Assembly: GCA_034520885.1 (NCBI GenBank)
Contig: JAXHNE010000005.1
Location: forward strand, 13,748 to 77,747
Reading direction: 5' to 3'
Length of the DNA stretch: 64,000 bases
From: Candidatus Saccharimonadota bacterium
Lineage (GTDB): Bacteria > Patescibacteriota > Saccharimonadia > Saccharimonadales > JAXHNE01
The notes beneath the pieces were generated by a model. That model was given only the letters and a program-made list of their open reading frames with translations. It was not told the origin of the DNA and ran no database searches. Positions 9,527 to 26,766 of the stretch are shown here, piece after piece (position 1 is the first letter of the stretch; every line of letters begins with the position of its first letter). The position numbers and the translations under genes were made by a program.

Positions 9527-11059
9527 CTAGAGTCCGGTAATTACCCGATATCCTTCTTGTCTTAAAGAGCTATCCTTAATTAGTTGCTCCAAGTTGGATT
9601 TCACCCGGGAGATCTCATCTTGGCTATAACCCACTGTCTGTATATCTTCCTGGTATGTAGGCTCTCCTAATTCGGGGGCAATGTGTATGGTTTCGTTTTG
9701 TATTGAAACGTTTTTTACTATGGGGTTTTTTTCAAGCTCAAGAAATCGTTGACTGATGTTCATAGTATCTTGTGTTTCTTCGTCCAGAAGTAAGGTGTAC
9801 CTACTTTTAGTAGATAGAAAACAGGGATAAATTTTAGAGTCAAACGACCGGATTCCACACAGTGTGCCCTCACCCGGAGCACTATAGAGCACGGGGCCAC
9901 CCGTTTCTCGGGGATTAAATTTGATCACGGCGCTACTCGTTGATATATACAGCCTATCTTCTATGGTCGTGAAGCCGATACCTTCCGGAATCAGACTTGT
10001 TTTTTGGAGACCGTTATCCTTTTCATATACACCAAGTCCTTCATCGTGAATAATACAAATATAGTTGTTGCCACAAAAATCAGCGCCGCGGACTTCATCG
10101 AAAGATAGCTCATGTTGCCCACTCTCCGATTTTAAAACTACGGTTGAACCCTGCTCTTCTAGTTGGTCGGCATGTGCTTCAACGGCCTCGGCCCTCTCTC
10201 CGGAACCAATACTATGACCCCCACCGTATATAAACATAAACTCCTCGCCGTTGGAGCGAATGGCGTTAAGTGGTTTGTCGTCTTTTTGGTCAGCCGCTTC
10301 TGCTTGTGATGCGGTTAATGTATTGAGATCGGTAACCTTATAGTAGATTGCGTATTCGGTGTCATATGCAAGAAACCCATTTTTTAAATCGACAACTCGT
10401 AGATTTAAGTCGGTCGGGAGGTCTCCTACTATGCGATCCGCCGACACTTCGCCACTATCCGCTAGCGCGAAGAGCCTATGACGACCCGTCTCAAGTAGCT
10501 TAACCAGTAGGTAACTATCTCCCCCTTCTTCGATGTACCCTTCTACGTAACCATCTTGTGAAACGTCTATATTCTTAGCATAACTTGGGTTTGTGCCGCT
10601 TGCGGGAGTATGGAAAACGACTTCACTGAGTAAAGAACCGCCACAAAGTGACGAGAAAAACGCAAAAGGCTCACCCGTGCCATACACACACGGGTGAGGA
10701 TTTATTATCGCAAAACTGTGGTCGCGTTGCTTTATTAGTTCTCCGCCCATGTTTGTACTTTGAAAAAAACCGGGCACGTTGACCCTGGCAAAATAGCGAC
10801 CATCTTTCGAGTCCACAGTAGCCGTGTAATTGCCGCTCTTCAGCGAAATAGTCTCTTCGCTTGAGTTTAGCGGATAGGTTTCCGTCATGTTTTCGTCGTC
10901 GACAAGGGTTAACGTGCCACTACCAGATAAGCTCTCCATAGATATCACGAGTCGTCCACGAGTACTTACCCAAAACAGCAATAGAATAAAACTGGTTACA
11001 GCGAGGGCGACGATTGAGAGTCTGATTAGTTTTCTTTTTTGCACGGCTCTATCCTCCAT
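9527..11059 (-). CDS. Hypothetical N-terminally anchored extracytoplasmic protein (last gene of the T4SS-like operon)
   Basis: 510-aa ORF with a single N-terminal TM segment (LIRLSIVALAVTSFILLLFWV). Its start overlaps the stop of the upstream hydrolase gene. No family recognised. Confidence 0.6.
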   Translation of the reverse strand: MEDRAVQKRKLIRLSIVALAVTSFILLLFWVSTRGRLVISMESLSGSGTLTLVDDENMTETYPLNSSEETISLKSGNYTATVDSKDGRYFARVNVPGFFQSTNMGGELIKQRDHSFAIINPHPCVYGTGEPFAFFSSLCGGSLLSEVVFHTPASGTNPSYAKNIDVSQDGYVEGYIEEGGDSYLLVKLLETGRHRLFALADSGEVSADRIVGDLPTDLNLRVVDLKNGFLAYDTEYAIYYKVTDLNTLTASQAEAADQKDDKPLNAIRSNGEEFMFIYGGGHSIGSGERAEAVEAHADQLEEQGSTVVLKSESGQHELSFDEVRGADFCGNNYICIIHDEGLGVYEKDNGLQKTSLIPEGIGFTTIEDRLYISTSSAVIKFNPRETGGPVLYSAPGEGTLCGIRSFDSKIYPCFLSTKSRYTLLLDEETQDTMNISQRFLELEKNPIVKNVSIQNETIHIAPELGEPTYQEDIQTVGYSQDEISRVKSNLEQLIKDSSLRQEGYRVITGL

Positions 11060-12197
11060 TAATCGACCAGTGCCACGGTTCAGAAGGCAGGTTTTTTAAG
11101 CTGGTGTTGTCGCGTAAAAGTATAAAGCATGGATGGCTTCTACTGCTAATTGTGCTGCCATTACACGTAAAGTCAACAGCACTACCCCGTTCATGATTCG
11201 ATCTACCAGGGATTGCCGTAGCAATCCTACAGCTACCAGGAGGGGCGGAATACACGTCAGGACAACCGTTCTTGACGCGCAACTCTTCTTGGCGCTGTAC
11301 GGATCTCCAACCCCAACCACTCATGTTGAGTCCTTCGTTGTTCGCCAGGTTCACAACCCTCTCAACCTCTTCGGCGATACACGGGTGGACACGTATGCCG
11401 ACTGCCGAAACTGTTTGAGATTCCTCTACGGGTTCAGCCGGGCAGCCATTCTCATCTAACGCAACCGGGCCACCACCCGATTCTCCCGAACAAGTGGATA
11501 CCGAAACGTTTGAAACGCCTTCGACAGCATTAGTCCCGGATCCGAATTCCTGCAGCCAGGCGAGCGCTTGTGAGTGTCTAACCGGGCGGGTTCTTTCTAT
11601 GTGGGCAGGATTTTCATATTCCTCAAGAAAAATATCAGTCGCCTCAATATAGTCCTCCGTAGCCTTAATTGGTTCAAGAGTCGAAGACTTGTAGTCATCA
11701 CTTGTAAGTTCAGTCCACAAGTAGTCAAGTTGCACACCGAGGGGTTCGGTGGGTGGAACACCTCGTTCGGCATACAATTCCCGCAAACCTTGTTTGCGAG
11801 GAGGATGTGTCCACTGAACCAACCCGTAACCTGGCTGCCCTTTGCTGTTTTGATCCGGTGGTACCGTATCAGATCTGTGGGGCGGGTCGCTAAAAGCAAA
11901 CTCAACGACACGAGGATCCCAGGTGCCCGCTGACTCACTTTCGATATTACCCATAATACCCGCGACCTGAGCGGGGGTAAGCCCCTTTGATATAAGGAAA
12001 TTCCAAACCTTTTCCGGATTCTCCGAGCCGGTAAGGATGGTGGCTCCTTCACTGCAAGTACGCGAGTCCGGATCGTAGAAAGGAGTATATAGGTTTTCCC
12101 TGTCCGTGTCGGTGAGTGCGTAGGCCATCGAAGATATAAAAATTTGCCCCAAAAAAGCGAATAAAATAAATAAACAAAAAATACTGCGCCTATTCAT
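11049..12197 (-). CDS. Bifunctional cell-wall hydrolase (lysozyme-like domain + M15/VanY-type peptidase), functionally VirB1/CwlT-like
   Basis: The start is set at ATG 12197 (MNRRSIFCLFILFAFLGQIFISSMAYA, a signal peptide). It overlaps the upstream stop by 8 nt. GIMGNIESESAG is the phage-tail-lysozyme-type motif. The C-terminal PGRSNHERGSAVDF matches the SxHxxGxAxD zinc site of M15 peptidases. Confidence 0.8.
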   Translation of the reverse strand: MNRRSIFCLFILFAFLGQIFISSMAYALTDTDRENLYTPFYDPDSRTCSEGATILTGSENPEKVWNFLISKGLTPAQVAGIMGNIESESAGTWDPRVVEFAFSDPPHRSDTVPPDQNSKGQPGYGLVQWTHPPRKQGLRELYAERGVPPTEPLGVQLDYLWTELTSDDYKSSTLEPIKATEDYIEATDIFLEEYENPAHIERTRPVRHSQALAWLQEFGSGTNAVEGVSNVSVSTCSGESGGGPVALDENGCPAEPVEESQTVSAVGIRVHPCIAEEVERVVNLANNEGLNMSGWGWRSVQRQEELRVKNGCPDVYSAPPGSCRIATAIPGRSNHERGSAVDFTCNGSTISSRSHPCFILLRDNTSLKNLPSEPWHWSINGG

Positions 12198-14763
12198 TGG
12201 TAAAGTACGCTCCTGCTGCTTCGACCGCCGCTTCCTCCAGGAGGCAAGGGTTGGCAATCCTTTTTTCTTCCAATCCAGTGTAGGGGTTTTCATTTCCTTC
12301 GCCGGACTCTTCCCATCGTTCTTTGTACTCTTCGCAGCTTTCTTCGGTTAATTGATCGGGGTTTCGAGTAAAGGCGGGATCATTCTGGCTATAGCCGTAC
12401 CGTGTAATTCCAAAGGCGTTTATTGCCAGTTGCTGTTCGGCCAGTGAATCCGCCCCCACACTGCCGGTAAAAGCATTCCTTAAGTTCGCCTTGAAACCAT
12501 TCATTATTCCGAAGATCGCGCCAGTGCCCTGAGTTTGACCAATGGGTATAGAACCAACCAGGCCGCTGGCGAGTGATTGAGGGTGCTCAAGGCTTGCGAG
12601 GCGCGTAAGTAAGTCTTCTTTACGGAAGTTTTGACGTTGTTGCTCCAACTGTTCCTTCGTTATTTTAGCGTACTCTTCGTCGCTAATAACCGGGGCGCCC
12701 AGACCGTAAGGTTGGCCGGATTCGTCATATCCGCCCTCGGCGAATTCCGCCGATGTCACATCAGCGCCCGCTATGACTCCGTCCAACTTGACACGCGCCG
12801 GGCTGTCTTCTTGTACGGGGAGCGGAAAGACGTAACTAAATACCCATGTAAGAAAGGTGTCGAACAGGTTTTTAGCCCACTCTTCGAATGTATCGTAACC
12901 ACGAATATTGGATACCAAACCAAAGACGACACTTCCTATTGAGCTCAGGACGAAGTCTACAGCACCAACTATCCTTTCAAGGAAAAAGCGATAATCTGCT
13001 GGGCAAGGAGCGTTAATTTCTACAACAATTTCAACGCCTGGTGGACTTGTTACGCAGTCATCCAACGTATTTACTGCGCTGGCCACTCTATCGACCACCG
13101 GATTGTCCCGAAGCTTCTCTACCTCGAATCTATCCCCCGGGCCTCTAACAATCTTCTTTTCATCGCACACGTGATCACCTCTGTCTATCGGTTCTCCGTC
13201 CTGACAAGTGTATTCCTCGTCGGATTGTGCATGCACCGTTGAACTTCCGAGGAAGGCGACGTCATTGTTTTGTTGATTGGAATAGGCGCGCCACAATTTA
13301 CTTTTTTCAGCACCATCAAGGTCACTCAAAGCCGCTCCAAGTTCATTCAAGTCTACTTCGTGAGATTTTGTCTCGTCATTCAATGAACGAAAACCAGTAT
13401 AAATTTCTCTGTATTGTTCAGCAGCCAAAGCCGAATGGAACCGACTAAGTGCATCGTCATCTATAGCCCGGTCAAAATCATCAGCCAAAAGAGCCATGGA
13501 CGCAACAAAGTATAATTGTCCTGCCACAGGAATTTTAGTCGCTGCAAGCCGAGCCGAACTATCCTTCATGACCTTTGCCAACAATTTTTCGAGGACATAA
13601 CTGCTCACAGTTCCCCTGCTTCTACCAAGAGGTTTTCCATTCTCGTCTGTTCCACGAAAATGCTTTATAATGTCATTTCTGTCTTCCTCGGAAAGGTTGT
13701 TTCTGTCAAGGTCTCTTTCCCGCAAGTCGTTGGGGCCACAAGAGTTTGCGCGGCTTCCGATGTTCCTGTCGATAGCGCAGGTAAATATGAGGCCATACTT
13801 ACTAGAAAAAGGATATACAAACCTGCTTACGAATCTGTACTTATATCTCGTTCGTGCGCTTGCACTCCGGTCTTCCAGGTTATCTCTCGTGTCGCAAGCC
13901 CAAAAACACCAAAGCCTGACGTCGTGTTTTCGCTGGAGGTATTTACGGATTGAGCGGCGCTCCATGACCTGATAGATCTTTGTTTCTTGCCGTAAAAAAC
14001 GGTTCATTTCACGGCCGAAATCCCTCCTCCCCCTGTCGGTTACGATATTCCTGAATTTTCCGTCAACGTCCCTGCTTAAGTCGATTTCACTCCTGAGTTT
14101 GGTATCGTATAGGCGATGTCGAGTAATGCCGGTATCACTGTCTTGTTCCGTTCTGATTTCTATACCGTAGTTATCAAATAACTTTTGCTCGACTCGTGCG
14201 TCGCGCCATTGATTGAACAAGTTACCAGCGATACCTGCCCCCCTATAGGTATATCTGCAGTCGAGAGACACTGTCTGAGTACAGGTATTGAGCTGAGTCA
14301 TATAGGACACCATATATCTTTCCATGAGATGCCCCGCCCGGGCTTCAACGGCGTTGGCGGCAACAGCAAACGCTTTTTGGTTGATATTCTGCATAAAGTG
14401 TTCGAGCTTGAGTGCTGGGAGGGTCAATACCGATATGAGCACACCCCCGCCCACGAAAAGGCCGATAACTCCTCCTCCGGCTTTTCTGCGGCGGGTCCAG
14501 AACTTTTTCTTATTGGCACCACTTCCGTCATCTTTAAATAAGCTTTGCTCTTCTTCGCCTCCAGTGTCTTTACGAGGTTCAGCACCTTCTTCCTTTTCAG
14601 CGATTTCGTTAGGCGAGAGTGATCTTTGGCCGATATCCTCCGCCGCTCCGCTGTGGGCTTCGCGGTCCATGGCCTCTTCTTCATCGGGAGAAATACCGGT
14701 AATACCCCTTAATTCATCATTCGAGGTCCCCTTTTTTTGTCGTTGATCGTCGTAGACTGGCAT
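12190..14763 (-). CDS. Large T4SS-associated membrane protein, function unknown
   Basis: 857 aa. Acidic cytoplasmic N-terminus, a TM segment (GGGVIGLFVGGGVLISVLTLPAL) and a large exported region with a second hydrophobic patch. Lies between the virB4-like gene and the hydrolase. No family recognised. Confidence 0.6.
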   Translation of the reverse strand: MPVYDDQRQKKGTSNDELRGITGISPDEEEAMDREAHSGAAEDIGQRSLSPNEIAEKEEGAEPRKDTGGEEEQSLFKDDGSGANKKKFWTRRRKAGGGVIGLFVGGGVLISVLTLPALKLEHFMQNINQKAFAVAANAVEARAGHLMERYMVSYMTQLNTCTQTVSLDCRYTYRGAGIAGNLFNQWRDARVEQKLFDNYGIEIRTEQDSDTGITRHRLYDTKLRSEIDLSRDVDGKFRNIVTDRGRRDFGREMNRFLRQETKIYQVMERRSIRKYLQRKHDVRLWCFWACDTRDNLEDRSASARTRYKYRFVSRFVYPFSSKYGLIFTCAIDRNIGSRANSCGPNDLRERDLDRNNLSEEDRNDIIKHFRGTDENGKPLGRSRGTVSSYVLEKLLAKVMKDSSARLAATKIPVAGQLYFVASMALLADDFDRAIDDDALSRFHSALAAEQYREIYTGFRSLNDETKSHEVDLNELGAALSDLDGAEKSKLWRAYSNQQNNDVAFLGSSTVHAQSDEEYTCQDGEPIDRGDHVCDEKKIVRGPGDRFEVEKLRDNPVVDRVASAVNTLDDCVTSPPGVEIVVEINAPCPADYRFFLERIVGAVDFVLSSIGSVVFGLVSNIRGYDTFEEWAKNLFDTFLTWVFSYVFPLPVQEDSPARVKLDGVIAGADVTSAEFAEGGYDESGQPYGLGAPVISDEEYAKITKEQLEQQRQNFRKEDLLTRLASLEHPQSLASGLVGSIPIGQTQGTGAIFGIMNGFKANLRNAFTGSVGADSLAEQQLAINAFGITRYGYSQNDPAFTRNPDQLTEESCEEYKERWEESGEGNENPYTGLEEKRIANPCLLEEAAVEAAGAYFTNE

Positions 14764-15155
14764 TATTGAGTCCTGATTTTTGAGTTTTGTGTCTTGAGTG
14801 ATTTAAGAAGCCCGCTCAGTATCTTGGATATTTCATCGGTATTCTCCACCAGTCTATAATAGTCCTCAGTCTTGAAGTACTCAAGACTTCTTCCGAGTTC
14901 AAGCATAGATTCAACTTCGGCAGCAGAACCTTTGGCAATCAAGAGAAAGTTGGAAAAAGCCTTTGGGCTTCTTCTGGAGTGGCCTTCGGCTATATTGTTC
15001 ATAATCGAGACGGACGCTCTTTGTATCTGATCACGGAAGGAAAAGTCTTTGTTATTTTGCAGTAGTCCATATATTTCAACGCGTAAATGACGAGCTTTTT
15101 GCCAAGCCTTGATGTCTCGAAACGACTGCCCGGTGTTTTTGTTTACTTTGCTCAT
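14763..15155 (-). CDS. Four-helix-bundle protein (23S rRNA IVS protein / Avd-like family)
   Basis: 130 aa. Motif QIQRASVSIMNNIAEGHSRRSPKAFSNFLLIAKGSAAEVESML. Its stop shares 1 nt with the ATG of the downstream 857-aa gene (TAATG). Confidence 0.85.
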   Translation of the reverse strand: MSKVNKNTGQSFRDIKAWQKARHLRVEIYGLLQNNKDFSFRDQIQRASVSIMNNIAEGHSRRSPKAFSNFLLIAKGSAAEVESMLELGRSLEYFKTEDYYRLVENTDEISKILSGLLKSLKTQNSKIRTQ

Positions 15156-15196: not shown

Positions 15197-17122
15197 TTAT
15201 GAGCCGGGGCTTAGGCGGTTGTTCAGGTCTATTGTACCTTGTTCGCCGGATATTTCGCCCTGTTGTTCTATTTGGCTTACTTGTTCCGGATTGGTGGTGA
15301 TCAAATTGGTTTCCGTGGGGCTGGCGGTAACCTGAATATGTACGTGATTTTGCCCGGCAAAGAATAACCCTTGACCCACCGGGAATTGGCTGAGGCGTTT
15401 CTTTTCCTCGCTAGTGAGTTTGAATACATGAGAAAGTGTGTCCACGGCGGTGGAGGATTGTTTGAGCAGGATTTGCATGGAGGCGTTGGCCACGATTGCC
15501 CGCCCCATACGGCTACCCATAAAGTCTTCCACGTCTTGTGAAATGGTGGTGATACCCAGGTTGTATTTACGGGCCCGTTTGGCCAGGCTGAACATGAAAT
15601 TGGCGGAATCTTCGTACTTCATGAGCTGCCAGGCTTCGTCGACCACCAGCATACGACGCTTTTGGTCGGCTTTGGTTTTGTTCCAGATAAAGTTAAGTAC
15701 GATATACATGGCCACCGGGCGCAGTTCGTCTTCCAGGTCACGGATATTAAATACCACCATCGGGTTGTTGATGTCGATGTTAGACGGTTGCGAGAAGATA
15801 CCCGCGAACGTACCGGTGGTGTATTTGCGAAGCCGTTGCGCCAATTGCGGCCCATTTCCGCCCATATGTAACAGCGTGTCGTAAAGATCGTTAATGGTCG
15901 GCGGCGGCGAAGTGTGCGTGAGCGGATCGTTGGTGATTCCGGCTTTGGCATAGGTTTCGATCAGTGCGGCGTCCAGATCGGCCTCTTCAGCGGGGCTGAG
16001 CGCCGGAGCAATGCTGCCCTGGGCGCCTTCTTGTTGAGCCATTTGGGCCTGGGCGCCGCCCATCATCAGCCGTAAGAGCCCGTGCAAAGTAATCAGGTTG
16101 CTGCGCAGGGCGTTATCGGCCTCCTCTTCGTCGGCAACTTTCGGCAAATCAAAAGGGTTTATCCTGGTCGGTGAATTCAAACTTAAGCGAACGTAGGCTC
16201 CGCCGACCGCTTCGGCCATGCGCTGGTATTCGTTTTCCGGGTCGATAATGAACACCTCGGTGCCGAACATCATGCTACGCAAGGCTTCCAGCTTAACGGT
16301 AAAACTTTTACCGGCGCCGGACTTGGCAAACACCACGGAATTGCCGTTTTCCAAGGAAAAGCGATCAAAAATCACCAACCCGGAGTTGTGCATGTTAATG
16401 CCGTAAAGAATGCCGTTATCTTGCGTAAGATCGGCCGAAGTGAACGGGAAGCTGGTGCTTAAAGCGCCGGTGTTCAGGTTGCGGCGAATCTGCAGTTGAT
16501 CCGTAAATTGCGGCACGGTGCTGTTTAAGCCTTGCTCTTGCTGTGAAGTGGCCGGTTTGGAGTAAATTAATTGCTGGCCAAGCATGGATTCCACTTTTTG
16601 GGCGACGTATTCCAGCTCGTCTTCCGATCCCCCGTAAATCGTAAAGTACAGCCCGAAGCGGAAGAAGCGTTCTTCGCCCACCTGTAGTTTGTCGCGCATT
16701 TCCTCGGCGTCCTGGATGGCGGCCTGGGTGCCCGGATCGCGAACCCGACCCTTCTCGGCAGTGATTTGCATATCGGCCTCCAAGCGGGACACCTTTTTCT
16801 TGAGGTTATCCAGCACTACCTGGCTTTCGACTGGATAAATGTAAATTGAAAGATCAATCACTTCGTCCAGATTGACCATACTACTTAACCAACCGGTAAA
16901 AATTTGCCGCGGATACCCATACACGTAGTAGGTGCGGGCGTAGCGGGTGCCGATTTGAAAGTCCTTATTGTTAAAGACAATGGAGCTGGGGGCAATAAAG
17001 TCACGGAGCGCGCCAACACCCTTCTGGAAAGCGGCTTGGACTTCTTGCTCCTCACGGGCTTTTTGCTGCTGCGCCAGCGTCACCGGATCGGTCTGGTCGT
17101 TCTTTTTACCAAACAAACTCAC
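15197..17122 (-). CDS. virB4: VirB4/TrbE/ConE-family type IV secretion ATPase
   Basis: 641 aa. Walker A VFAKSGAGKSFT and Walker B MLVVDEAWQLM. The N-terminal domain is typical of VirB4 (GTRYARTYYVYGYPRQIFTGWL). GTG start. Confidence 0.9.
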   Translation of the reverse strand: MSLFGKKNDQTDPVTLAQQQKAREEQEVQAAFQKGVGALRDFIAPSSIVFNNKDFQIGTRYARTYYVYGYPRQIFTGWLSSMVNLDEVIDLSIYIYPVESQVVLDNLKKKVSRLEADMQITAEKGRVRDPGTQAAIQDAEEMRDKLQVGEERFFRFGLYFTIYGGSEDELEYVAQKVESMLGQQLIYSKPATSQQEQGLNSTVPQFTDQLQIRRNLNTGALSTSFPFTSADLTQDNGILYGINMHNSGLVIFDRFSLENGNSVVFAKSGAGKSFTVKLEALRSMMFGTEVFIIDPENEYQRMAEAVGGAYVRLSLNSPTRINPFDLPKVADEEEADNALRSNLITLHGLLRLMMGGAQAQMAQQEGAQGSIAPALSPAEEADLDAALIETYAKAGITNDPLTHTSPPPTINDLYDTLLHMGGNGPQLAQRLRKYTTGTFAGIFSQPSNIDINNPMVVFNIRDLEDELRPVAMYIVLNFIWNKTKADQKRRMLVVDEAWQLMKYEDSANFMFSLAKRARKYNLGITTISQDVEDFMGSRMGRAIVANASMQILLKQSSTAVDTLSHVFKLTSEEKKRLSQFPVGQGLFFAGQNHVHIQVTASPTETNLITTNPEQVSQIEQQGEISGEQGTIDLNNRLSPGS

Positions 17123-17144: not shown

Positions 17145-17234
17145 AAGTCTGAAATCTGAAATGTGAAACCAGAAACAAATCTGAAATCTGAAATGTGAAA
17201 CCAGAAACAAATCTGAAATCTGAAATGTGAAACT
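17145..17234. repeat. 31-bp tandem repeat (about 2.8 copies) built of heptamers
   Basis: aaatctgaaatctgaaatgtgaaaccagaaac is repeated head-to-tail at 17146, 17177 and 17208 (the last copy is partial). It sits between the virB4 start and the stop of the four-helix-bundle gene. Confidence 0.9.
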
Positions 17235-18802: not shown

Positions 18803-19287
18803 ATAGCTGAAAGCTAAATGCTAAGAGCTCAAAGCTGCGCAATTTCCAATTTCCAATTTCTAATTTTCATTCAATTCTCAACCGCCATTTTTTAAACTAG
18901 TGGTAATTTTTTGGAAGATTAATACCAACTCATGAACTTCTTGCCATAATGATCGTAAATCAGCTTTTTTCGAAGGCGTTGCGGTACTAAGCATACGGAG
19001 CCAATGCTGTGTTTCTTGAGCCTCTTTTTTACAGATATGAATTTTATTACGGAAATCTTTTTTAGAGCTGGCCCCGTTCGCTTCCATATAGTTTGCTCCA
19101 ATGCTTGTCGAGGAACGAACCAACTGATTAATCAAAGGCTTGTTTATATTATTTTGTTTAATAACTTTACAGAGCTTAATTACATCTTCCCCAAACCTTG
19201 ATGTTCTTTCCTCTAAATCAAATTTATTGTCTTTTTGAGCCATTGAAGATTGATTGTAAATTGTAAAATTGAAAACTAAAAATTAAC
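18803..19287 (-). mobile_element. Putative heptamer-armed cassette 4 carrying a four-helix-bundle gene
   Basis: The left flank begins with agctgaa agctaaa tgctaag agctcaa agctgcg, then caatttc caatttc caatttc taatttt cattcaa. The right flank (19244-19287) reads ttgaaga ttgattg taaattg taaaatt gaaaact, whose reverse complement gives the caattt-type words. Confidence 0.55.
18878..19243 (-). CDS. Four-helix-bundle protein (23S rRNA IVS protein / Avd-like family), subtype B
   Basis: 121 aa. Motifs KFDLEERTSRFGEDV and QLVRSSTSIGANYMEANGASSKKDFRNKIHICKKEAQET. Confidence 0.85.
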   Translation of the reverse strand: MAQKDNKFDLEERTSRFGEDVIKLCKVIKQNNINKPLINQLVRSSTSIGANYMEANGASSKKDFRNKIHICKKEAQETQHWLRMLSTATPSKKADLRSLWQEVHELVLIFQKITTSLKNGG

Positions 19288-19345: not shown

Positions 19346-20464
19346 TCAGTGCAAACTGACCACGACTTCGTCGGGGTGGTCGTCGTCCTTGTTTTTGTTG
19401 GCTTGGCGGGCAATGGTTTCCACGTTCAGGTCGTTGTTATTGGCCAGTTGGGTGACTGACGGATCGGGTTTTTTCGGTTCCGGCTTGGCGGGTTCTTTTT
19501 GGTTCGTTGGTTGTTGATGAGGGGTGGATGGTGCCGCGTCTTTTTGCTTTTTTTGTTCGGAAAGCGGGAGCACGGTTTTTTGGTGCGTGGTGTAGGTGGA
19601 CTTTTTAGCTTGGGAGTCGTGAATTTTATTAAGTAAAGCTTCTTCATCGGCCTTGGAGAGGTTTTGCTCGCCCGGCTCCGGTTTGTCGTCAGTGTGCGGC
19701 GCAACGGTGGTGCCCTGCCCGGTTGCCATACCGGGTGGCGTTTTGCTAGGGTCGTTTTGGTGCATGAACCAAAAATCTTGCGGCGTTTGTTGGTTTTGCT
19801 GATTTTCTTGCGGGGCGGCTTGTGGGTGCGACATTCGTTGTTTTATCTGGTCTTTATGCGTGGCTTCGGATTGGGTAATCATTTTATCGATGTTTTTGGC
19901 GGTGGGATTGTTGTTTTCATCGAGCACGTCTTCTTTTACCCCAACATCGGTGGCAATTTGGGTGCCTACGGTTTCCGTTCCGGCGACCAACCGGTCGGAA
20001 TTGTCCACTTGTTGGCCGCCAAATGGCGAACCGCCCAATTGTTTTACCGCCCAGCCGCGGCTATCCACGGTTTGCGCCAGGGCGGAAAGCCGGCTGCGGA
20101 CTTGGGTTTGATCCAGTTCATCGGTAAGGTGCCGTTCCACTTTTTTCGGAACCGTAATAGTAACCAGTTCTTTTATGCCGGCTTGATCCCAAATGCGCTT
20201 ACGCGGCTTAAAGAAAAAGCGGATTTTTGCCAGCAACCATGTTTCCGTGGGTTGCGCTTTGCTCCACGGGAACCCGAGTACCCCGAAAAACACGGCCGGC
20301 GGTAGCAAAAATATCGCAAAAAATGCCGCCCCTTGAGTGAAAGTAAAAAAAATGAGGTACAAACACACGGCGGTAATTGCAAAGTAAATAAATTGCTTGA
20401 GCGTGAGCGGCCCGATGAGTTTGTCCTCGGCCTCGATATCTTGGATCACTTTGTGCTGCGCCAT
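19346..20464 (-). CDS. PrgI/VirB3-like T4SS membrane protein with a long disordered C-terminal extension
   Basis: The N-terminus VIQDIEAEDKLIGPLTLKQFIYFAITAVCLYLIFF followed by two TM helices is the PrgI-family pattern. The C-terminal ~200 aa are Q/P/K-rich. Confidence 0.7.
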   Translation of the reverse strand: MAQHKVIQDIEAEDKLIGPLTLKQFIYFAITAVCLYLIFFTFTQGAAFFAIFLLPPAVFFGVLGFPWSKAQPTETWLLAKIRFFFKPRKRIWDQAGIKELVTITVPKKVERHLTDELDQTQVRSRLSALAQTVDSRGWAVKQLGGSPFGGQQVDNSDRLVAGTETVGTQIATDVGVKEDVLDENNNPTAKNIDKMITQSEATHKDQIKQRMSHPQAAPQENQQNQQTPQDFWFMHQNDPSKTPPGMATGQGTTVAPHTDDKPEPGEQNLSKADEEALLNKIHDSQAKKSTYTTHQKTVLPLSEQKKQKDAAPSTPHQQPTNQKEPAKPEPKKPDPSVTQLANNNDLNVETIARQANKNKDDDHPDEVVVSLH

Positions 20465-20475
20465 CTATTTAAACC

Positions 20476-22644
20476 CTAACCTGTTCCAAATGGATTTTCT
20501 GGAGGTTCTTCTTCGCTTCGAAGCATTTCTTCTCTTTCTGCTTGTGTCACCCCCCCCCTGCTTAGCTTTCTCTCGACAGCATCCCTAACTGCGTTTTCAT
20601 CCGCTGGTTCAGCACCTGGCAGCAGCCCATTTTCTTGTTGTAATTTTACTCTCTCTGAATCAGTTAAGATACTTCGAATTTCTGCCTTGATGGCTGGATT
20701 GGTATATGCGTGGTAAGCCTGTTGTAGGGTTGACTCGATATCTTTAACTGCGTCTGCATTAACAGGTTTGCCATCAATATCGCCTCCACTGAGCGCCTTG
20801 GTGAAGGTTTTGTGGTATTTTTTGAGCATAGGTTCTTTCGCTCCTCCAATATCCTGAACGCTCATGCCTTGAATACGCTTAAGTTCTTGTGTTGCAGTAC
20901 CTGCACGGAAATTGCCATCTTCATCAACCCCAACACTATAGCCGGGTTTGGTGAGCGCTCCAGCTCGCGCTCCAGCAAGCTCTGCCTGGGTTTTGTACAT
21001 TGAACCAACACCACTCAAACCTTCCTGATCCAGGAGGTTTCCGACTTTGGCTACGTCTTCATTATCTGCAAAACCTTGCGACGCAAGAGCGAGTCCTGCG
21101 GCGCCCGTCACACTAGCACGTCCGTACTCGTCATTTCGAGAGACCGTAGTGAGATATGCACCGTTTTCCTCTAATTGTTTAGCCCCAAGTGCCATATTGT
21201 CATCGACTGAACCATCTGGTTTTCTGTAAGCTTTCATGTCCCGGACGACTCTATCCATGTCAGATGCAGAACCATTCCATCCCCTGATAAGTTCATTCCC
21301 GTCGTCGTCGAAGACACCTGTGCTGAGTGCTTTTAGTGCTCTGTCGTTCATTCCGACCTTACTGATGCTTTCGCCAAGTTTTTGCGTATCCTCCCACTTC
21401 GACTGAGCCAGTTCATTCAAAAGAGCTTTTCCACCCCTACTGCCAGAATAAATTTTGGCAGCACTCTTTGGATCCATTATGGCGCTAGCCCCAGAATTCA
21501 ATTTGTCAACCGCCCATCTACCCCGGGATCCTTTGGCGAACCTGTTTGGGTTTATTGCCCGGCTGGAAGACCAGCGTTCTCGTTTTTCGGCTCGTTTTTT
21601 GCGTTGGTGGTCGAAGATTCCGCGTGATTTTTCGTTGAGTGCTCCGGTGACCGTGGCGAACATCCCGCCAGCAACCTTAAAAGTGAATGGAATAAAGGCG
21701 TACGGAATTAAATAGGCAATAAAACCAAAGATATAATCCGCTATCGCGGCTTGGTCAGTAACTTCGCTACCGACGAATAGGTAAGCAAAAACCCTTCCCA
21801 TGGCAATCAAACCCATAATAAGCGGATACATAAATAAAAGCTTACTGAACAAACTCCACCAGTTGTTCCATAACTTGTCGTTACCGGGGAATATCCAAGC
21901 GAGAATCGCCAAGGGCGCAATTAGTAGTAGCATTACAATAAAAAGTTGCCTTATTATGAGAATCAGGAAGGCTATCGCAGCAACCGTTAGAAGCGTAGTC
22001 CCAAAAAAAGCGATAACAATGATCCCGCCAAGACCTAACAAGACCCAGTCGAGACCAGGTATACCAATCGAGAAAACATTCCGAAAACTTAATGCTTCAA
22101 AGCCACCAAATGGGCTCGTGATAAGACCGCCAACACCCCTGCCGGCCGCCTCTACGACATCAATGAAAAACGTTAGTAGTGGGTAAGATACCGCAATAAA
22201 TATGACCGCTATCACAAGACGCGGCAAGGCCTTTTTAACCGTATAGGCGCTTATGAAATCAAAACCGAGTGCGGTAGAGATGACCATGACGAGCATAATC
22301 GGCACCAAGATACTGAAAGCGATGCTTCGTATGTTACTGGCAGCATCGGCGAGGCGATCTTCTTCCGCGAAGTCGTTGTCAACTTCGAGCAAGTTTGCGA
22401 TTTGTCCGTCTAGCCACCTTACACTGGCATCGATAGCTGTCATGGCTGGGCACATGAACCATCCAAAGTCGCCGCCATGAGCTTCACAGTTGCCGCCGTC
22501 ATCCTCGTTCTCGGTTTCATTTTCCTGAGAAGCAGAATTGGAAGGTTGGGTACTGTCTGACTGGGCAAATGTAGCAGGAGCCGGCAAGAATAACCCGGTA
22601 GATACTATTCCCACAAAAAGAAGGGTCAAAAATTTTTTCGCCAT
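20476..22644 (-). CDS. VirB6/TrbL/ConG-like polytopic T4SS channel protein
   Basis: 722 aa. Signal peptide (LFLPAPATFAQS), about 6-8 TM helices in the central third, and a large soluble C-terminal domain. Position and topology are typical of VirB6-like proteins in Gram-positive-type systems. Confidence 0.7.
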   Translation of the reverse strand: MAKKFLTLLFVGIVSTGLFLPAPATFAQSDSTQPSNSASQENETENEDDGGNCEAHGGDFGWFMCPAMTAIDASVRWLDGQIANLLEVDNDFAEEDRLADAASNIRSIAFSILVPIMLVMVISTALGFDFISAYTVKKALPRLVIAVIFIAVSYPLLTFFIDVVEAAGRGVGGLITSPFGGFEALSFRNVFSIGIPGLDWVLLGLGGIIVIAFFGTTLLTVAAIAFLILIIRQLFIVMLLLIAPLAILAWIFPGNDKLWNNWWSLFSKLLFMYPLIMGLIAMGRVFAYLFVGSEVTDQAAIADYIFGFIAYLIPYAFIPFTFKVAGGMFATVTGALNEKSRGIFDHQRKKRAEKRERWSSSRAINPNRFAKGSRGRWAVDKLNSGASAIMDPKSAAKIYSGSRGGKALLNELAQSKWEDTQKLGESISKVGMNDRALKALSTGVFDDDGNELIRGWNGSASDMDRVVRDMKAYRKPDGSVDDNMALGAKQLEENGAYLTTVSRNDEYGRASVTGAAGLALASQGFADNEDVAKVGNLLDQEGLSGVGSMYKTQAELAGARAGALTKPGYSVGVDEDGNFRAGTATQELKRIQGMSVQDIGGAKEPMLKKYHKTFTKALSGGDIDGKPVNADAVKDIESTLQQAYHAYTNPAIKAEIRSILTDSERVKLQQENGLLPGAEPADENAVRDAVERKLSRGGVTQAEREEMLRSEEEPPENPFGTG

Positions 22645-22695
22645 TACAAGAATATTAACATAACGGGTATGCGTTCACACCAAATTTATAAAGTG

Positions 22696-23652
22696 TTAGC
22701 CGAAGTAAACCTCGCCGGGCTCTATCGATTTTATGGAGTAAAGACTCCAAACTTGAGTTGCCTGGTCGTCGCTTACGCTCAGATCCTCACTCCGCATATA
22801 GCCAACTTCGTACTTCCAGTGTTGATAGTCTTCTCCTTCGTTAGAAGTTTCTTTTACGATCACCTCAACCTCGCCTACTTCTTCAGTGCTTGAATCTATC
22901 ACTTCGTAAGTACTTGAGGAAACATAACCTGGATTATCTTGGCGGTAGCTCCACATACCAGTGAATGACTCCTGAAGTGAATTGGTTAAATCGCCCGATC
23001 CACCACCAACCACAAAATCAAGGCATCTTAAGCCGTCCCCGTACTCACCAGCGTTAAACATACAATTTAGGTTATGCTCCGTAATGGCAACGAGTTCTTC
23101 GGGGCTATCTACGTCCCAGTATTGCACTTTCGGGGTGAGTTCTTCCGGCAGCTCTTCAACGGGGGTTTCATCCGTTTCGATGGGCGCAGTCACGGGGGCT
23201 GATCCGGGTACTTCTTCATCGGCTACTGCCTCTTGTGTATTGTTGCTCGGCTCGTCTTCGTTCCCGCCAGAAATTGCTGCAAGAAATGCAACGCCGGCTA
23301 ACATTACCCCGCCGGCAACGGCAATGAATTTCCTGGAAATTATGTTCCGTGAAGGGTTTTGTTCGTCGGTTTCGGGTTCTGAATGGGGCGTGTTTTCCGG
23401 ATGCTCCGGGCTCAGTTCGGCGGTGGGTCGTTCGAAGTCCTTCCGTACGTTTTCCGGGAGCGTACCCGGATCTTGTATATCGCCGGGACTGATAAGACCC
23501 GCATCTATGGCTTCTTGGAGACTCATATCGCCAAAATCACCCGTTGGGTGATCTTCCCGCATTTCAGGAGGGACACTATCTGCTCCCGAGTGTGAAAATT
23601 TTGACTCGCTTTCAACTCCTGAAGCTTGCTCTGGATTGGATGGATCTACCAT
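22696..23652 (-). CDS. Bitopic membrane protein, first gene of the T4SS-like operon (possible VirB8-like role)
   Basis: 318 aa. Acidic disordered N-terminus, one TM segment (FIAVAGGVMLAGVAFLAAISGG) and an exported ~130-aa globular C-terminus. The VirB8-like assignment rests on topology and position only. Confidence 0.45.
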   Translation of the reverse strand: MVDPSNPEQASGVESESKFSHSGADSVPPEMREDHPTGDFGDMSLQEAIDAGLISPGDIQDPGTLPENVRKDFERPTAELSPEHPENTPHSEPETDEQNPSRNIISRKFIAVAGGVMLAGVAFLAAISGGNEDEPSNNTQEAVADEEVPGSAPVTAPIETDETPVEELPEELTPKVQYWDVDSPEELVAITEHNLNCMFNAGEYGDGLRCLDFVVGGGSGDLTNSLQESFTGMWSYRQDNPGYVSSSTYEVIDSSTEEVGEVEVIVKETSNEGEDYQHWKYEVGYMRSEDLSVSDDQATQVWSLYSIKSIEPGEVYFG

Positions 23653-23710
23653 TATGACCTCTCAATTGGTAATTATAGTATACCATAATTAGCATACCTT
23701 GTGCTACAAG

Positions 23711-23739
23711 TTGCGCAATGTTTCTGATAGAGGTACAAT
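23711..23739 (+). promoter_or_regulatory. Candidate sigma70-type promoter of the pilin array
   Basis: TTGCGC (23711-23716), a 17-nt spacer, then TACAAT (23734-23739). The ATG at 23750 follows 10 nt later with no Shine-Dalgarno sequence, so the mRNA would be nearly leaderless. Confidence 0.35.
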
Positions 23740-23749
23740 ATTTCCAACC

Positions 23750-24604
23750 ATGAAAGTTAAAAACAAAAAAGTCCTATTCATAACGCTACAGTTTTTGTCC
23801 ATTCTGGGCTTGTTTTTTGTTATTACAGTTCCGAAGGCAAATGCTGCTTTCACGAAAGAAAGAGCGCACCAGGAATACTATGTATGCGATAGCCCGTCAT
23901 ATGTAGAAAATCACCTCCAACGGGACAGTGAGGAAAAGTTCATAAGTGTTGAAAGGCACGATTCTTCCACCGGAGAAAGCACCGTTCATCTTTCATGCCA
24001 TTCAAGTGCCGACCTGATTAAGGTTCAAAGCGGTAGCACTATGCATGATACTTCCCGGTTTGCTGCTTTGTTTACGTGTGGTAGTGGTGAAAATCCGGGT
24101 ACGCTTACTTTTGACGAAGAAAAGATAGCCCCGTCCTCGGGAGCGAAGTACGTAACAGTTAAGTGCAGTAATGGTGATAACTTTGACTACGAGTTAAGTG
24201 GAGCCTATGGCGGGTGTTCGTCTCGGCGAGCCGAAGATTCATGTGATAATCCAACAATAACCAAGGAGCGCGACAACTTTGCCGACACTCTTGAAGAGAA
24301 CGCCAGCCGTGGCGAAAACGCCGAAGCTGTCGAGATAGCATCTGATTGTGAAGAAGGAATAGATCCGGATAATTGTAAAATTACCGACTACCTAAGAACG
24401 TTCACGAACGTACTAATCGCGTTGGTCGGTATAGTAGTGGTTATCATGGTCGTAGTCGGCGGCATTCAATACTCCGCGGCTCGTGACAATCCGCAGGCCG
24501 TACAGGCCGCCAAAGGGCGAATTGCGAATGCGGTGTTGGCGCTAATTGTCTATATATTCATGTCAGCCTTCTTGCAATATATAATTCCCGGAGGAGTCTT
24601 ATGA
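23750..24604 (+). CDS. VirB2/TrbC-like pilin-domain protein 1 with a large Cys-rich N-terminal domain
   Basis: The start is set at ATG 23750 (MKVKNKKVLFITLQFLSILGLFFVITVPKANA, a signal peptide). C-terminal module ...LIALVGIVVVIMVVVGGIQYSAARDNPQAVQAAKGRIANAVLALIVYIF..., i.e. two hydrophobic helices with a polar loop, shared with the next five genes. Confidence 0.75.
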   Translation: MKVKNKKVLFITLQFLSILGLFFVITVPKANAAFTKERAHQEYYVCDSPSYVENHLQRDSEEKFISVERHDSSTGESTVHLSCHSSADLIKVQSGSTMHDTSRFAALFTCGSGENPGTLTFDEEKIAPSSGAKYVTVKCSNGDNFDYELSGAYGGCSSRRAEDSCDNPTITKERDNFADTLEENASRGENAEAVEIASDCEEGIDPDNCKITDYLRTFTNVLIALVGIVVVIMVVVGGIQYSAARDNPQAVQAAKGRIANAVLALIVYIFMSAFLQYIIPGGVL

Positions 24605-25191
24605 TCGGGAGAGTGCTCGATTTTGCCGGTACCTTCAAGGTATATTTGGTCGTGGTTCTTGCTCTGGTTTTTGTTTTATTGTTCCTGGCTCCCAGTGCGA
24701 CTGCTGACCACGGGTTAACCAAAGCCGAATGTAGTGCGCGGGCGAGTAATTTTACCTCCGAAGAGTTCCGTGAATGTAACGAACACGCTGAAAGTGACCC
24801 AGGGGGTCTTGGAACGGCGGGAGGTCGATACGGACAAGGCAGCCCTGAACACTGTACTAGGGAGTCGTCAACTTTTCTGAACTTCCCCACTTGGTATAAA
24901 TATCTTGATCCAACTTTTACGGACGGTGAGTGTAAGCTTGACCTTGATTTTGAAGAGACTTCTACCTACACTGCGATATTCTTTGCAATTTTAGAGATTA
25001 TTCTACGGATTGCCGGTCTAGTGGCGGTTATTTTCGTAATTGTCGGGGGCTTTACGTTTATTACCAGTGACGGCCAACCGGAAAAAGCTAAAAATGCCCG
25101 CTGGACGATATTGAACGCATTAATTGGACTGGCCATTGCTTTGTCGGCGACAGTTTTGGTTAACTTTATTGGGAATAATCTGGGAATATAA
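24601..25191 (+). CDS. VirB2/TrbC-like pilin-domain protein 2
   Basis: ATGA overlap with the previous gene. Signal peptide. C-terminal module AGLVAVIFVIVGGFTFITSDGQPEKAKNARWTILNALIGLAIAL. Confidence 0.75.
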   Translation: MIGRVLDFAGTFKVYLVVVLALVFVLLFLAPSATADHGLTKAECSARASNFTSEEFRECNEHAESDPGGLGTAGGRYGQGSPEHCTRESSTFLNFPTWYKYLDPTFTDGECKLDLDFEETSTYTAIFFAILEIILRIAGLVAVIFVIVGGFTFITSDGQPEKAKNARWTILNALIGLAIALSATVLVNFIGNNLGI

Positions 25192-25196
25192 TTTCT

Positions 25197-25496
25197 ATGC
25201 TTTTACCGTTTCGTTTTTTTGCCCAACAAGTATTAGAGCGGGATGACCTTCCGGGTCTTCCGAATGTTGATCTTGCGCCGAGCTCGATACAAGACGCCAT
25301 TTCTTTGGTCGCAACGATTCTCGGCTTCATTTCGGTGATAGTGATCATTATTGCGTCAATTAAATTCGCCCTTTCCCAGGGCGAATCACAAAAAGTAGCT
25401 AATGCAAAAAACACGATTATTTATGCCTTGATTGGTTTGGTCGTGAGTCTTTTGGCCTACTCCATTGTGAACTTTGTGATTGGCGAGGTTACTTAA
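25197..25496 (+). CDS. VirB2/TrbC-like pilin 3
   Basis: 99 aa. Module ILGFISVIVIIIASIKFALSQGESQKVANAKNTIIYALIGLVVSLLAYSIVNFV. Confidence 0.7.
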   Translation: MLLPFRFFAQQVLERDDLPGLPNVDLAPSSIQDAISLVATILGFISVIVIIIASIKFALSQGESQKVANAKNTIIYALIGLVVSLLAYSIVNFVIGEVT

Positions 25497-25498
25497 CC

Positions 25499-25876
25499 AT
25501 GCGCAGACTGGCTGCTATCTTAATTGTTTTGTTCTCGTTCGCCAGTATTGGATTGTTTTCCGGTGATGTTGTGTCCGCACAAGTACTCAATCCTGCCTGT
25601 GAGGGAGTTGACCCATTACCTCCGGCATGCAGCGAAACGGATAATGATCCTTTTCGGGGCGGGTCACTGCTCTCCGATGTAGTAAGGCTATTTTCCTATG
25701 CACTCGGAGTTATCGTAGTAATCATGGTCATCATTGCCGGTATTAAATTTGCGACTTCGGGGGGAGACGCCTCAAGCGTTAAAAGCGCTCGTGACACATT
25801 GCTGTATGCGGTTCTTGCCCTGGCCATTGCGGCTATTGCCCAGTTGATTTTAATTTTCGTAATAGATAAAGTATAA
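25499..25876 (+). CDS. VirB2/TrbC-like pilin 4
   Basis: 125 aa. Signal peptide, then ALGVIVVIMVIIAGIKFATSGGDASSVKSARDTLLYAVLALAIAAIAQLI. Confidence 0.75.
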   Translation: MRRLAAILIVLFSFASIGLFSGDVVSAQVLNPACEGVDPLPPACSETDNDPFRGGSLLSDVVRLFSYALGVIVVIMVIIAGIKFATSGGDASSVKSARDTLLYAVLALAIAAIAQLILIFVIDKV

Positions 25877-25893
25877 GAAGAAAGGATAGTTAT

Positions 25894-26280
25894 ATGAAAA
25901 AACAAATTTTAAAATTCTGTGCGGTATTGGCTCTGGCACTTGGTTTAGTGATGCCGGCTGCAGTTTCCGTACCCGCGTACGCTCAAACTACGGATGATGT
26001 CCAAAGAGGTGTTGATTTCACTTGTCCCGGCGGTAACTGTGGCGGGAATGCCGAAACCGAAGTCGGTAATATTATCTCTACGGTCATAAACGTGCTAAGT
26101 ATTGTAGTGGGAGTGGTCGCCGTGATTATGGTAATCATCGGTGGCTTAAAATACATCATTTCCTCGGGCGACTCCGGTAATGTTCAATCGGCCAAGAACA
26201 CTATTCTCTACGCCATTGTCGGCCTTGTCATCGTCGCCTTCGCGCAAATCATCGTTCGTTTTGTATTGGATCAAGTCTAG
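25894..26280 (+). CDS. VirB2/TrbC-like pilin 5
   Basis: 128 aa. Signal peptide ending AYAQ, then VVGVVAVIMVIIGGLKYIISSGDSGNVQSAKNTILYAIVGLVIVAFAQIIVRFV. Confidence 0.8.
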   Translation: MKKQILKFCAVLALALGLVMPAAVSVPAYAQTTDDVQRGVDFTCPGGNCGGNAETEVGNIISTVINVLSIVVGVVAVIMVIIGGLKYIISSGDSGNVQSAKNTILYAIVGLVIVAFAQIIVRFVLDQV

Positions 26281-26346
26281 TAGATTTAATTACGGCTTGA
26301 TGTATGGTATAAATGAGTCATCAACAAAAGGACTAAAGGAATACTC

Positions 26347-26766
26347 ATGAAGAAAAAAATACGAATGTTACTGACAAGTTTCGCGCTCACATTCGGCTTG
26401 GTTGGCGCTTTCGCCTTTACCGGACCGGCTACTGTTTCCGCGCAGATTGAAGGATGTGAAGAAGGTATCAGTGGCGGTTTGGACTGCGGCTCCGCTAGTA
26501 CTGACGAAGAAGGTGCCGATGCAAATGCCAGTGAACGGGTCGACAGTATTATTAAGACGGTCATTAACGTCTTCTCCATCGTGGTCGGCGTGGTCTCCGT
26601 GGTGATGATCATTATCGGCGGCCTGAAGTACATTACCTCCGGCGGAGATTCCGGCAATGTGACCGGTGCCAAGAACACCATTCTCTACGCTATCATTGGT
26701 CTCGTGGTCGTTGCCCTGGCGCAAATCATCGTCCGGTTCGTACTGGAACGTGCGACCGGCGCTTAA
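26347..26766 (+). CDS. VirB2/TrbC-like pilin 6
   Basis: 139 aa. Signal peptide, then VVGVVSVVMIIIGGLKYITSGGDSGNVTGAKNTILYAIIGLVVVALAQIIVRFV. This is the closest paralog of pilin 5. Confidence 0.8.
   Translation: MKKKIRMLLTSFALTFGLVGAFAFTGPATVSAQIEGCEEGISGGLDCGSASTDEEGADANASERVDSIIKTVINVFSIVVGVVSVVMIIIGGLKYITSGGDSGNVTGAKNTILYAIIGLVVVALAQIIVRFVLERATGA

Follow-up and report, generated by a model that had tools for sequence, protein, structure and literature searches.

A chromosomal type IV secretion system locus of Saccharimonadia next to dnaA, dnaN and recF, very probably orthologous to that of Candidatus Southlakia epibionticum

Introduction

In 2023, Wang et al. described an 'apparent T4SS (SEML1_0006-0019)' (T4SS, type IV secretion system) in Candidatus Southlakia epibionticum ML1. 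The genes, including the series of pilins, were essential by transposon sequencing (Tn-seq); the system was closest to Gram-positive conjugative T4SSs, and neither coupling nor relaxase proteins could be recognised in it (PMC10633639). It is in S. epibionticum ML1 alone, and by Tn-seq, that the need for the T4SS in epibiotic growth has been established (PMC10633639). Here we describe a related locus at positions 9527-26766 of a 64-kb stretch of the 145-kb contig JAXHNE010000005.1, referred to below as the window, whose proteins are recorded at NCBI as hypothetical proteins of a Candidatus Saccharibacteria bacterium metagenome-assembled genome (tags U5L95_019xx). An earlier reading of this DNA (the original prediction) had interpreted the locus as a T4SS that is chromosomal, of Gram-positive architecture and probably non-conjugative, and whose coupling protein is not linked to it. 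Each of these points was reproduced, and they match the published Patescibacteria T4SS (PMC12102498, PMC10633639); what had been missed is that such a system had been described before, and that a cultured relative cannot grow epibiotically without it. We consider it very probable that the locus is a conserved, vertically inherited chromosomal T4SS of Saccharimonadia, orthologous to and colinear with SEML1_0004-0019. The window locus is the Patescibacteria/Saccharimonadia T4SS already published between 2020 and 2025, of which it is one more uncultured member, and it holds no novelty as a system.

In a survey of the phylum, Quinonero-Coronel et al. (2025) placed the VirB4 proteins in a sister clade of MPF_FATA, found TrsD to be the partner present most often, and reported PrgI-type VirB3, VirB6 and VirB2-like arrays of 2-11 genes, notably in Saccharimonadia (PMC12102498). 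In the same survey relaxases were present in 103 genomes only and rarely near virB4, homologues of the type IV coupling protein (T4CP) were mostly distant, and the loci were close to dnaA/dnaN (PMC12102498). The same system is covered by a 2025 FEMS review, in which it was speculated that the T4SS and its pilus serve as a conduit through which signals pass or host material is taken up (PMC12857230). With the Patescibacteria T4SS it was shown for the first time that a T4SS can be essential to its own carrier; it is also a monoderm system with VirB2-like pilins, and all of this has been published (PMC7427843, PMC10633639, PMC12102498, PMC12857230). What the window adds is comparative detail, namely a single VirB6-like gene, shuffling of hydrolase domains, very fast evolution of envelope proteins, and insertions of genes of the 23S_rRNA_IVP family.

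Results

The predicted gene order of a minus-strand operon facing a divergent plus-strand set of pilin genes was confirmed for all genes by the open reading frame (ORF) listing and by translation. The minus-strand genes form a co-directional string from 23652 to 9527 and the plus-strand genes a second one from about 23750 to 26766, a gap of about 100 bp separating the two. The position next to the chromosomal origin genes was also upheld: YidC, DnaA, DnaN and RecF are found directly upstream, with dnaA-dnaN-recF abutting the locus, and RecF was identified from its sequence together with precomputed SMC_N/AAA matches. For three genes the gene caller gave a likely true start, at 11044 for the gene that closes the operon (505 aa), at 12197 for the hydrolase (382 aa instead of 414) and at 23750 for the first pilin (284 aa). 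The topologies given below are from Kyte-Doolittle hydropathy, and Pfam scans covered every large ORF of the window. The genes of the locus and its borders are listed here with their ML1 counterparts (SEML1 numbers).

4949-9526: DnaA, DnaN and RecF; ML1 dnaA, dnaN and recF (0003)
9527-11044, minus strand: N-terminally anchored protein, 505-510 aa, last operon gene, one transmembrane segment, four invariant cysteines, abuts recF; ML1 0004 (250 aa) and 0005 (PEGA, 212 aa)
11049-12197, minus strand: membrane-anchored peptidoglycan hydrolase, lysozyme plus M15/VanY peptidase, 382 aa; ML1 0006, lysozyme
12190-14763, minus strand: membrane protein, 857 aa, two transmembrane segments, seven invariant cysteines; ML1 0007 (1114 aa, C-terminal DD-peptidase)
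15197-17122, minus strand: VirB4 ATPase of the CD1110/MPF_FATA-like type, 641 aa; ML1 0008, VirB4
17633-18547, minus strand: TrsD-like protein, 304 aa, Q/P-rich N-terminus followed by a homologue of the VirB4 N-terminal domain; ML1 0009 (294 aa)
19346-20464, minus strand: PrgI/VirB3-like protein, 372 aa, N-terminal hairpin of two transmembrane segments and long low-complexity tail; ML1 0010, PrgI
20476-22644, minus strand: VirB6-like polytopic protein (TrbL_3), 722 aa, 'extended VirB6'; ML1 0011, VirB6-like
22696-23652, minus strand: bitopic protein, 318 aa, first operon gene; ML1 0012, NTF2-like (non-essential), by position
No counterpart in the window: ML1 0013, VirB6-like
23750-24604, 24601-25191, 25197-25496, 25499-25876, 25894-26280 and 26347-26766, plus strand: six divergent VirB2-like pilins; ML1 0014-0019, six pilins
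26899-27402: Hsp20, beyond the pilin array; ML1 0020, Hsp20
27681-28355: ComF-like gene; ML1 0021, ComF
29701: tRNA-Ser; ML1 0022, tRNA-Ser

The closest known systems are the T4SSs of ML1 and of Candidatus Nanosynbacter lyticus TM7x, both from Saccharimonadia like the window, and from recF to Hsp20-ComF-tRNA-Ser the genes are colinear with those of ML1 (SEML1_0003-0022). The two loci differ in that ML1 has two VirB6-like genes (999 and 1089 aa) whereas the window has one (722 aa), in that the M15 domain is carried by the lysozyme protein in the window and by the large membrane protein in ML1, and in that the last gene encodes one protein of 505-510 aa in the window and is represented by two (250 and 212 aa) in ML1. 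In addition, the window operon has three inserted genes for four-helix-bundle proteins. From the Patescibacteria clade covered by the survey there is no essential difference, as the FATA-related VirB4, TrsD, PrgI, VirB6, the pilin array, the absence of a relaxase, the distant T4CP and the proximity to dnaA/dnaN are all shared.

When the window VirB4 was scanned against one genome per GTDB species, at least 561 relatives were recovered, the best 80 of which were all from Saccharimonadales/Saccharibacteria and 82-90% identical. Synteny was assessed by tblastn of all window proteins against these best 80 loci, 42 of which have full 10-kb flanks. The order shared in the 80 loci was ComF, Hsp20, pilins, (bitopic protein), VirB6-like, PrgI, TrsD-like, VirB4, large membrane protein, lysozyme/peptidase, (anchored protein) and RecF. 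In the full-flank loci VirB4 was accompanied by RecF, the TrsD-like gene and PrgI without exception (42/42), by the VirB6-like gene in 41/42 and by pilin arrays in 37-40/42, while the TrsD-like gene, which abuts VirB4, was found in 79/80 loci. A single polytopic VirB6-like gene was present in each of the 50 loci of this clade in which it was counted (50/50). Since VirB4, TrsD and PrgI keep their place by recF in 42/42 full-flank relatives, we conclude that this is a chromosomal core locus passed on by vertical descent, rather than an island or an integrative and conjugative element (ICE). Sequence conservation along the locus was far from even, the median identity being 84% for VirB4, 67% for TrsD and 23% for the 857- and 510-aa proteins, with almost no detectable relatives of the 318-aa protein. 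Such a gradient is consistent with conservation of a motor in cytoplasm and membrane and rapid diversification of the parts at the surface.

The assignment of VirB4 passed the profile test, as the protein exceeded the curated cut-off of the NCBIfam equivalog conju_CD1110 (363 bits, cut-off 325), with model positions 177-735 of 752 aligned. It also matched the Thermoanaerobacter pseudethanolicus VirB4 structure (PDB 4AG5, E=1.7e-48), the Pfam families P-loop_TraG / AAA_10 and, by BLASTP, pCF10 PrgJ (residues 40-607 against 225-788, E=8e-41), and it contains the Walker A and Walker B motifs SGAGKS and VVDEAW. Because the CD1110 and PrgJ alignments begin at 177 and 225, the window VirB4 lacks the N-terminal stretch of ~180-220 residues that a monoderm VirB4 such as PrgJ possesses. 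The 304-aa protein next to it was linked to that region by sub-cut-off NCBIfam matches to VirB4_plasma (positions 100-248, E=4e-7), conju_CD1110 (positions 2-79, E=1.9e-6) and TrsD (E=2.5e-6, 27.5 bits, below the cut-off of 200), and by a precomputed Pfam match to PF26593, TraC-like. BLASTP and hhalign against PrgJ gave no match, so that it is through HMM libraries only that the protein is connected with the VirB4 N-terminus. We read it as the probable detached N-terminal domain of VirB4, in line with the published TrsD assignment (PMC12102498).

The PrgI/VirB3-like protein was predicted correctly, since its two-segment hairpin is accompanied by a Pfam PrgI match above cut-off (E=5e-12, 46.6 bits, cut-off 27). 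The 722-aa protein consists of a leader followed by at least five transmembrane segments. A precomputed match to PF19590, TrbL_3, was found for it and for 120/120 homologues among the matches listed, whereas nothing was obtained with local Pfam to E 10, with NCBIfam, with a profile search of PDB sequences or with an hhalign comparison to PrgH. An AlphaFold2 (AF2) model built from a 63-sequence alignment had a pLDDT of 85.4, and its top PDB matches by Foldseek were chains of the R388 TrwJ/VirB5-TrwI/VirB6 stalk (probability 0.99-1.00, target-normalised TM score 0.39-0.48, E 0.09-0.3); from their length (260-272 residues) the matched chains were taken to be TrwI/VirB6. With the TrbL_3 matches, the predicted fold, the polytopic topology and a PrgH-like position just upstream of PrgI taken together, the original VirB6 assignment holds, though not strongly. 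In the model the hydrophilic C-terminal half is confidently predicted as a helical-repeat domain, which makes the protein an 'extended VirB6'.

All six pilin-like genes of the original prediction match the T4SS_pilin family PF18895, five above the cut-off and one narrowly beneath it (26.1 against 26.6). Pilin 5 also exceeded the TrbC/VirB2 cut-off (28.6 bits, cut-off 27.9), and three other pilins matched that family below threshold. The paralogues are quite divergent, pilins 2-6 aligning to the first at 18-28% identity. A hairpin of two transmembrane segments is present in 6/6 and an N-terminal hydrophobic segment, of the type of a Sec leader, in 5/6, while pilins 4-6 have a cysteine pair ahead of the hairpin and pilins 1 and 2 carry large extra N-terminal domains. 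A set of six VirB2-like pilins is unusual for a monoderm system.

Both domains predicted for the wall hydrolase were recovered by Pfam (Phage_lysozyme2, E=1.9e-28; VanY, E=5.7e-8) behind one N-terminal transmembrane anchor, and the protein is the functional analogue of VirB1/PrgK. The remaining envelope proteins of the locus, of 857, 510 and 318 aa, are fast-evolving and bear cysteines. The original prediction had held that at least four large components belong to no recognisable family; this still applies to these three, none of which has a family match, and does not apply to the 304-aa protein, which is TrsD/TraC-like.

The 857-aa protein corresponds to the first ~950 aa of SEML1_0007. Thirteen homologues were found, the longer of which end in CHAP, VanY or Exo_endo_phos domains, and the M15/VanY domain, which the window has on its lysozyme protein, is, in one related locus (L040, 11927-15010), fused to the 857-aa homologue, as at the C-terminus of SEML1_0007. 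Because relatives bear hydrolase domains at their C-termini and the M15 domain moves between neighbours, we take the 857-aa protein to be the part without catalytic activity of a PrgK/TraG-like wall-hydrolase protein, the enzyme domains of which shuffle between adjacent genes. An hhalign match between the 857-aa family and PrgK was rejected, as it was confined to the CHAP domain of the longer relatives. AF2 on a 13-sequence alignment gave a pLDDT of 53.8 and Foldseek no match at E <5, and no conclusion was drawn from this model.

The 318-aa protein has an acidic N-terminus, one transmembrane segment, an acidic linker and a C-terminal domain of ~140 aa with two invariant cysteines. A word-indexed search returned the protein itself only, full phmmer gave 22 remote relatives of the same architecture, and tblastn found the gene in 1/42 full-flank relatives. 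Neither the protein nor its family profile matched anything in Pfam, NCBIfam, PDB or PrgL; the best PDB match of the profile, to the N-terminus of VirB10 (E=0.022), fell in a low-complexity stretch and was dismissed. The gene occupies the place of the non-essential NTF2-like SEML1_0012, and its product is an accessory, fast-evolving component. A likeness to VirB8 is plausible, given the bitopic topology, the size of the domain and the NTF2-like annotation of the positional counterpart in ML1. The 505-510-aa protein at the other end of the operon, which holds the position of SEML1_0004/0005, has 10 homologues that are ~20% identical to it; neither PDB nor Pfam yielded a family for it, a PPC match of 21.4 bits being under the 25.9 cut-off.

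No relaxase, integrase or plasmid replication gene had been predicted, and Pfam found none among the large ORFs of the window, nor did a relaxase or integrase flank the locus within it. A single VirD4-like ATPase had been noted 26 kb away, and this too was reproduced, with a weak VirD4/TraD-like match.

52362-55058, minus strand: VirD4/TraD-like P-loop ATPase, 898 aa, unlinked, 26 kb from the T4SS locus

The ATPase exceeded the T4SS-DNA_transf cut-off by little (23.6 bits against 20.1), and its matches to TrwB_AAD_bind and to NCBIfam SXT_TraD and conju_CD1115 were below cut-off. It contains a Walker A motif (GQTGVGKS), a Walker B motif (YVDEF) and a K/R/P-rich C-terminal tail of ~200 aa, and it is without an N-terminal transmembrane segment, which is atypical for a membrane-anchored coupling protein. 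Whether it is a member of the T4SS is uncertain. Because a relaxase and a dedicated coupling protein are absent from the 64 kb, the locus is not a conjugation machine.

The operon also contains three genes of the four-helix-bundle family 23S_rRNA_IVP (IVP below), which were not listed in the original prediction, and a fourth lies between dnaN and recF.

18878-19243, minus strand: IVP / Avd-like, 121 aa, at the PrgI-TrsD junction (Pfam PF05635, E=5.2e-17)
17235-17636, minus strand: IVP, 133 aa, at the TrsD-VirB4 junction (Pfam PF05635, E=4.4e-15)
14763-15155, minus strand: IVP / TIGR02436, 130 aa, at the junction of VirB4 and the 857-aa gene (Pfam E=6.1e-33, TIGR02436 E=2e-32)
8086-8430, plus strand: IVP, between dnaN and recF

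All four genes lie in intergenic junctions of the recF/T4SS cluster, and two of them are fitted tightly against neighbouring T4SS genes, the start of the 133-aa gene overlapping the TrsD stop codon (ATGA) and the end coordinate of the 130-aa gene (14763) being the first base of the 857-aa gene. A 32-nt tandem repeat in three copies (17145-17240) follows the 133-aa gene just upstream of the VirB4 start, and a 25-nt repeat in two copies (17570-17619) lies within the 5' coding region of the same IVP gene and encodes a repeated EARxxKHE-like peptide. IVP genes were found in 8/80 related loci, always at the same three kinds of junction (for example L025:9535-9921, L002:9532-9945, L030:8471-8824, L062:8545-8901 and L010:17676-18020). 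At one and the same junction a window copy was 62% identical to that of L025 and had no similarity to that of L002; the copy at the PrgI-TrsD junction, where most relatives have none, was unlike those of L030 and L062. Since copies at the same junction are sometimes unrelated, recurrent independent insertion of a small gene cassette is suggested. The PF05635 family resembles the Avd proteins of diversity-generating retroelements (PMC10053308), and no reverse transcriptase is present in the 64-kb window. The Patescibacteria survey paper makes no mention of IVP insertions (PMC12102498), which are possibly the only new item here, and a minor one. It is conceivable, and in our view doubtful, that the IVP genes represent either an undescribed small mobile cassette that targets the junctions of a highly expressed operon or a subunit with an accessory or regulatory role in the Patescibacteria T4SS.

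Discussion

Taken as a whole, the locus encodes a minimal monoderm (MPF_FATA-like) translocon, composed of VirB4, a separate TrsD-like protein, PrgI/VirB3, one extended VirB6-like protein and anchored hydrolases. In pCF10 of Enterococcus, the MPF_FATA prototype, the core genes have the same order as in the window, PrgH(VirB6)-PrgI(VirB3)-PrgJ(VirB4)-PrgK(hydrolase), and in both the hydrolase is of the phage-tail-lysozyme type. However, pCF10 has the relaxase PcfG, the T4CP PcfC, the adhesins PrgA/B/C, the VirB8-like PrgL and PrgD, and is devoid of a VirB2 pilin, whereas the window has six pilins and the VirB4 N-terminal domain as a separate gene, and lacks a relaxase, an adhesin and a linked T4CP. 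The VirB6-like protein of the window is also ~3x larger than PrgH and undetectable by comparison with it. A small separate homologue of the VirB4 N-terminus (TrsD) beside VirB4, as in the window, is found in the Trs system of Staphylococcus pGO1/pSK41; unlike the window locus the pGO1 system is conjugative and without pilins, and the TrsD match in the window is below the family cut-off. With the MPF_T systems, R388 Trw and Agrobacterium VirB, the locus shares VirB2-type pilins, and the predicted fold of the membrane domain of the 722-aa protein has its best match in the R388 VirB5/VirB6 stalk chains. As a monoderm system it differs from them in lacking the outer-membrane core of VirB7, VirB9 and VirB10, and neither VirB5 nor VirB8 or VirB11 could be recognised in it.

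On the basis of what is known of VirB/Trw and Prg/Pcf, and of the genetics of S. epibionticum, a possible mode of action can be proposed. Hexamers of VirB4, with the N-terminal domain supplied by TrsD, would dock on a channel made of PrgI/VirB3 and the VirB6-like protein, while the lysozyme/M15 hydrolase and the 857-aa protein would open the peptidoglycan. Pilins drawn out of the membrane might polymerise as a tube or fibre extending to the envelope of the host, and the variable cysteine-bearing proteins, together with the pilin paralogues, could tune host specificity. The cargo may be proteins exported into the host or molecules taken up from it.

Several points weigh against this interpretation of the locus. 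In any member of the family, neither the substrate nor the direction of transport is settled by sequence, and in this organism the pilus is known from genes alone. The relaxase negative covers 64 kb of the genome, and one may still lie elsewhere. The VirB6 fold match is modest (TM score 0.39-0.48, E about 0.1), the TrbL_3 and TraC-like assignments are from precomputed matches that the local Pfam scan did not reproduce, and no VirB8-like component could be demonstrated, the 318-aa candidate being without any sequence match.

It might be argued that the VirB4 module only assembles a VirB2-type fibre tethering the epibiont to its host, and that nothing is translocated. Six pilin paralogues with variable exposed regions, comparable to the antigenically variable VirB2 arrays (PMC12102498), and the absence of a linked coupling protein that would recruit a substrate are what such an adhesive device might be expected to show. 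Yet proteins are secreted in the absence of a T4CP by Ptl and by the VirB system of Brucella (PMC12102498), a VirB6-type channel protein and wall hydrolases are universally retained in these loci, and for adhesion and motility Saccharibacteria already use type IV pili, of which they have two systems (PMC11623550; PMC12857230). We therefore regard a role restricted to adhesion or pilus assembly as unlikely.

We give a slightly lower probability to a T4SS for DNA uptake or exchange, similar to ComB of H. pylori or the archaeal Ced system, which would feed ComEC/ComF for transformation or nucleotide scavenging, and hold it to be quite unlikely. Patescibacteria are unable to make nucleotides, a ComF-like gene (27681-28355) and ComEC (31856-33307) lie 1-5 kb from the pilin array, VirB4 has sub-threshold matches to CedB and CedD, and in ABY1 the T4SS loci co-localise with comF, recG and radA (PMC12102498). 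In S. epibionticum, however, deletion of comEC abolished competence and left viability intact while the T4SS is essential, so that its essential role is not ComEC-dependent uptake, and competence depends on type IV pili (PMC12857230); the adjacency of ComF is merely conserved synteny.

A conjugative element near the origin, an ICE or a remnant of one with relaxase, oriT and integrase outside the window, is very improbable and was rejected because of the fixed synteny and because relaxase, integrase and bordering tRNA genes were missing: the relation of the VirB4 clade to MPF_FATA conjugation systems, the pCF10-like order VirB6-VirB3-VirB4-hydrolase (PrgH-I-J-K), the VirD4-like ATPase at 52362-55058 and a GC content slightly under that of the flanks (about 0.45-0.50 against 0.50-0.53) would agree with it, but relaxase, integrase and Rep were not found in 64 kb, the locus has a fixed place between recF and hsp20/comF with recF adjacent in 42/42 full-flank relatives, no tRNA or repeat borders it, a VirB4 identity of 82-90% among the best 80 of at least 561 relatives is typical of a core gene, and in Patescibacteria relaxases occur in 103 genomes only and seldom near virB4 (PMC12102498).

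Other genes of the window

Elsewhere in the window Pfam recovered housekeeping genes, including ComEC, ValRS, TsaD, Mur ligase, GroEL and a bact-PGI_C phosphoglucose isomerase among others. An Rfam scan of the window returned nothing but tRNAs. Promoters were predicted 21 times against a shuffled expectation of 19.4 in a promoter/terminator scan, which is not above chance, and the scan was not used.

The stretch at 29701-38442 is bracketed by tRNA genes, two tRNA-Ser at 29701-29915 and a tRNA-Arg and tRNA-Ser at 37866-38442. Its GC content of 0.55-0.57 is above that of the rest of the window, and ComEC lies within it. The stretch also holds defence-like genes, encoding a GmrSD_C endonuclease (31107-31859), a lamin-tail-domain protein (33365-35113), a TIR_2 protein (35918-36712) and a nucleoside deoxyribosyltransferase-like protein (37149-37733).

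A protein of the Pup-ligase family (PafA/Dop-like, E=1.5e-37) is encoded at 964-2364 on the plus strand, upstream of the origin genes. Towards the other end of the window a member of the CarS-like CDP-archaeol synthase family (Pfam, E=1.2e-24; 61671-62186, minus strand) and a CDP-alcohol phosphatidyltransferase (62842-63486, minus strand) were found with a PHP-domain gene between them, CarS-like being an archaeal-type lipid enzyme family that is present here within a bacterial genome.

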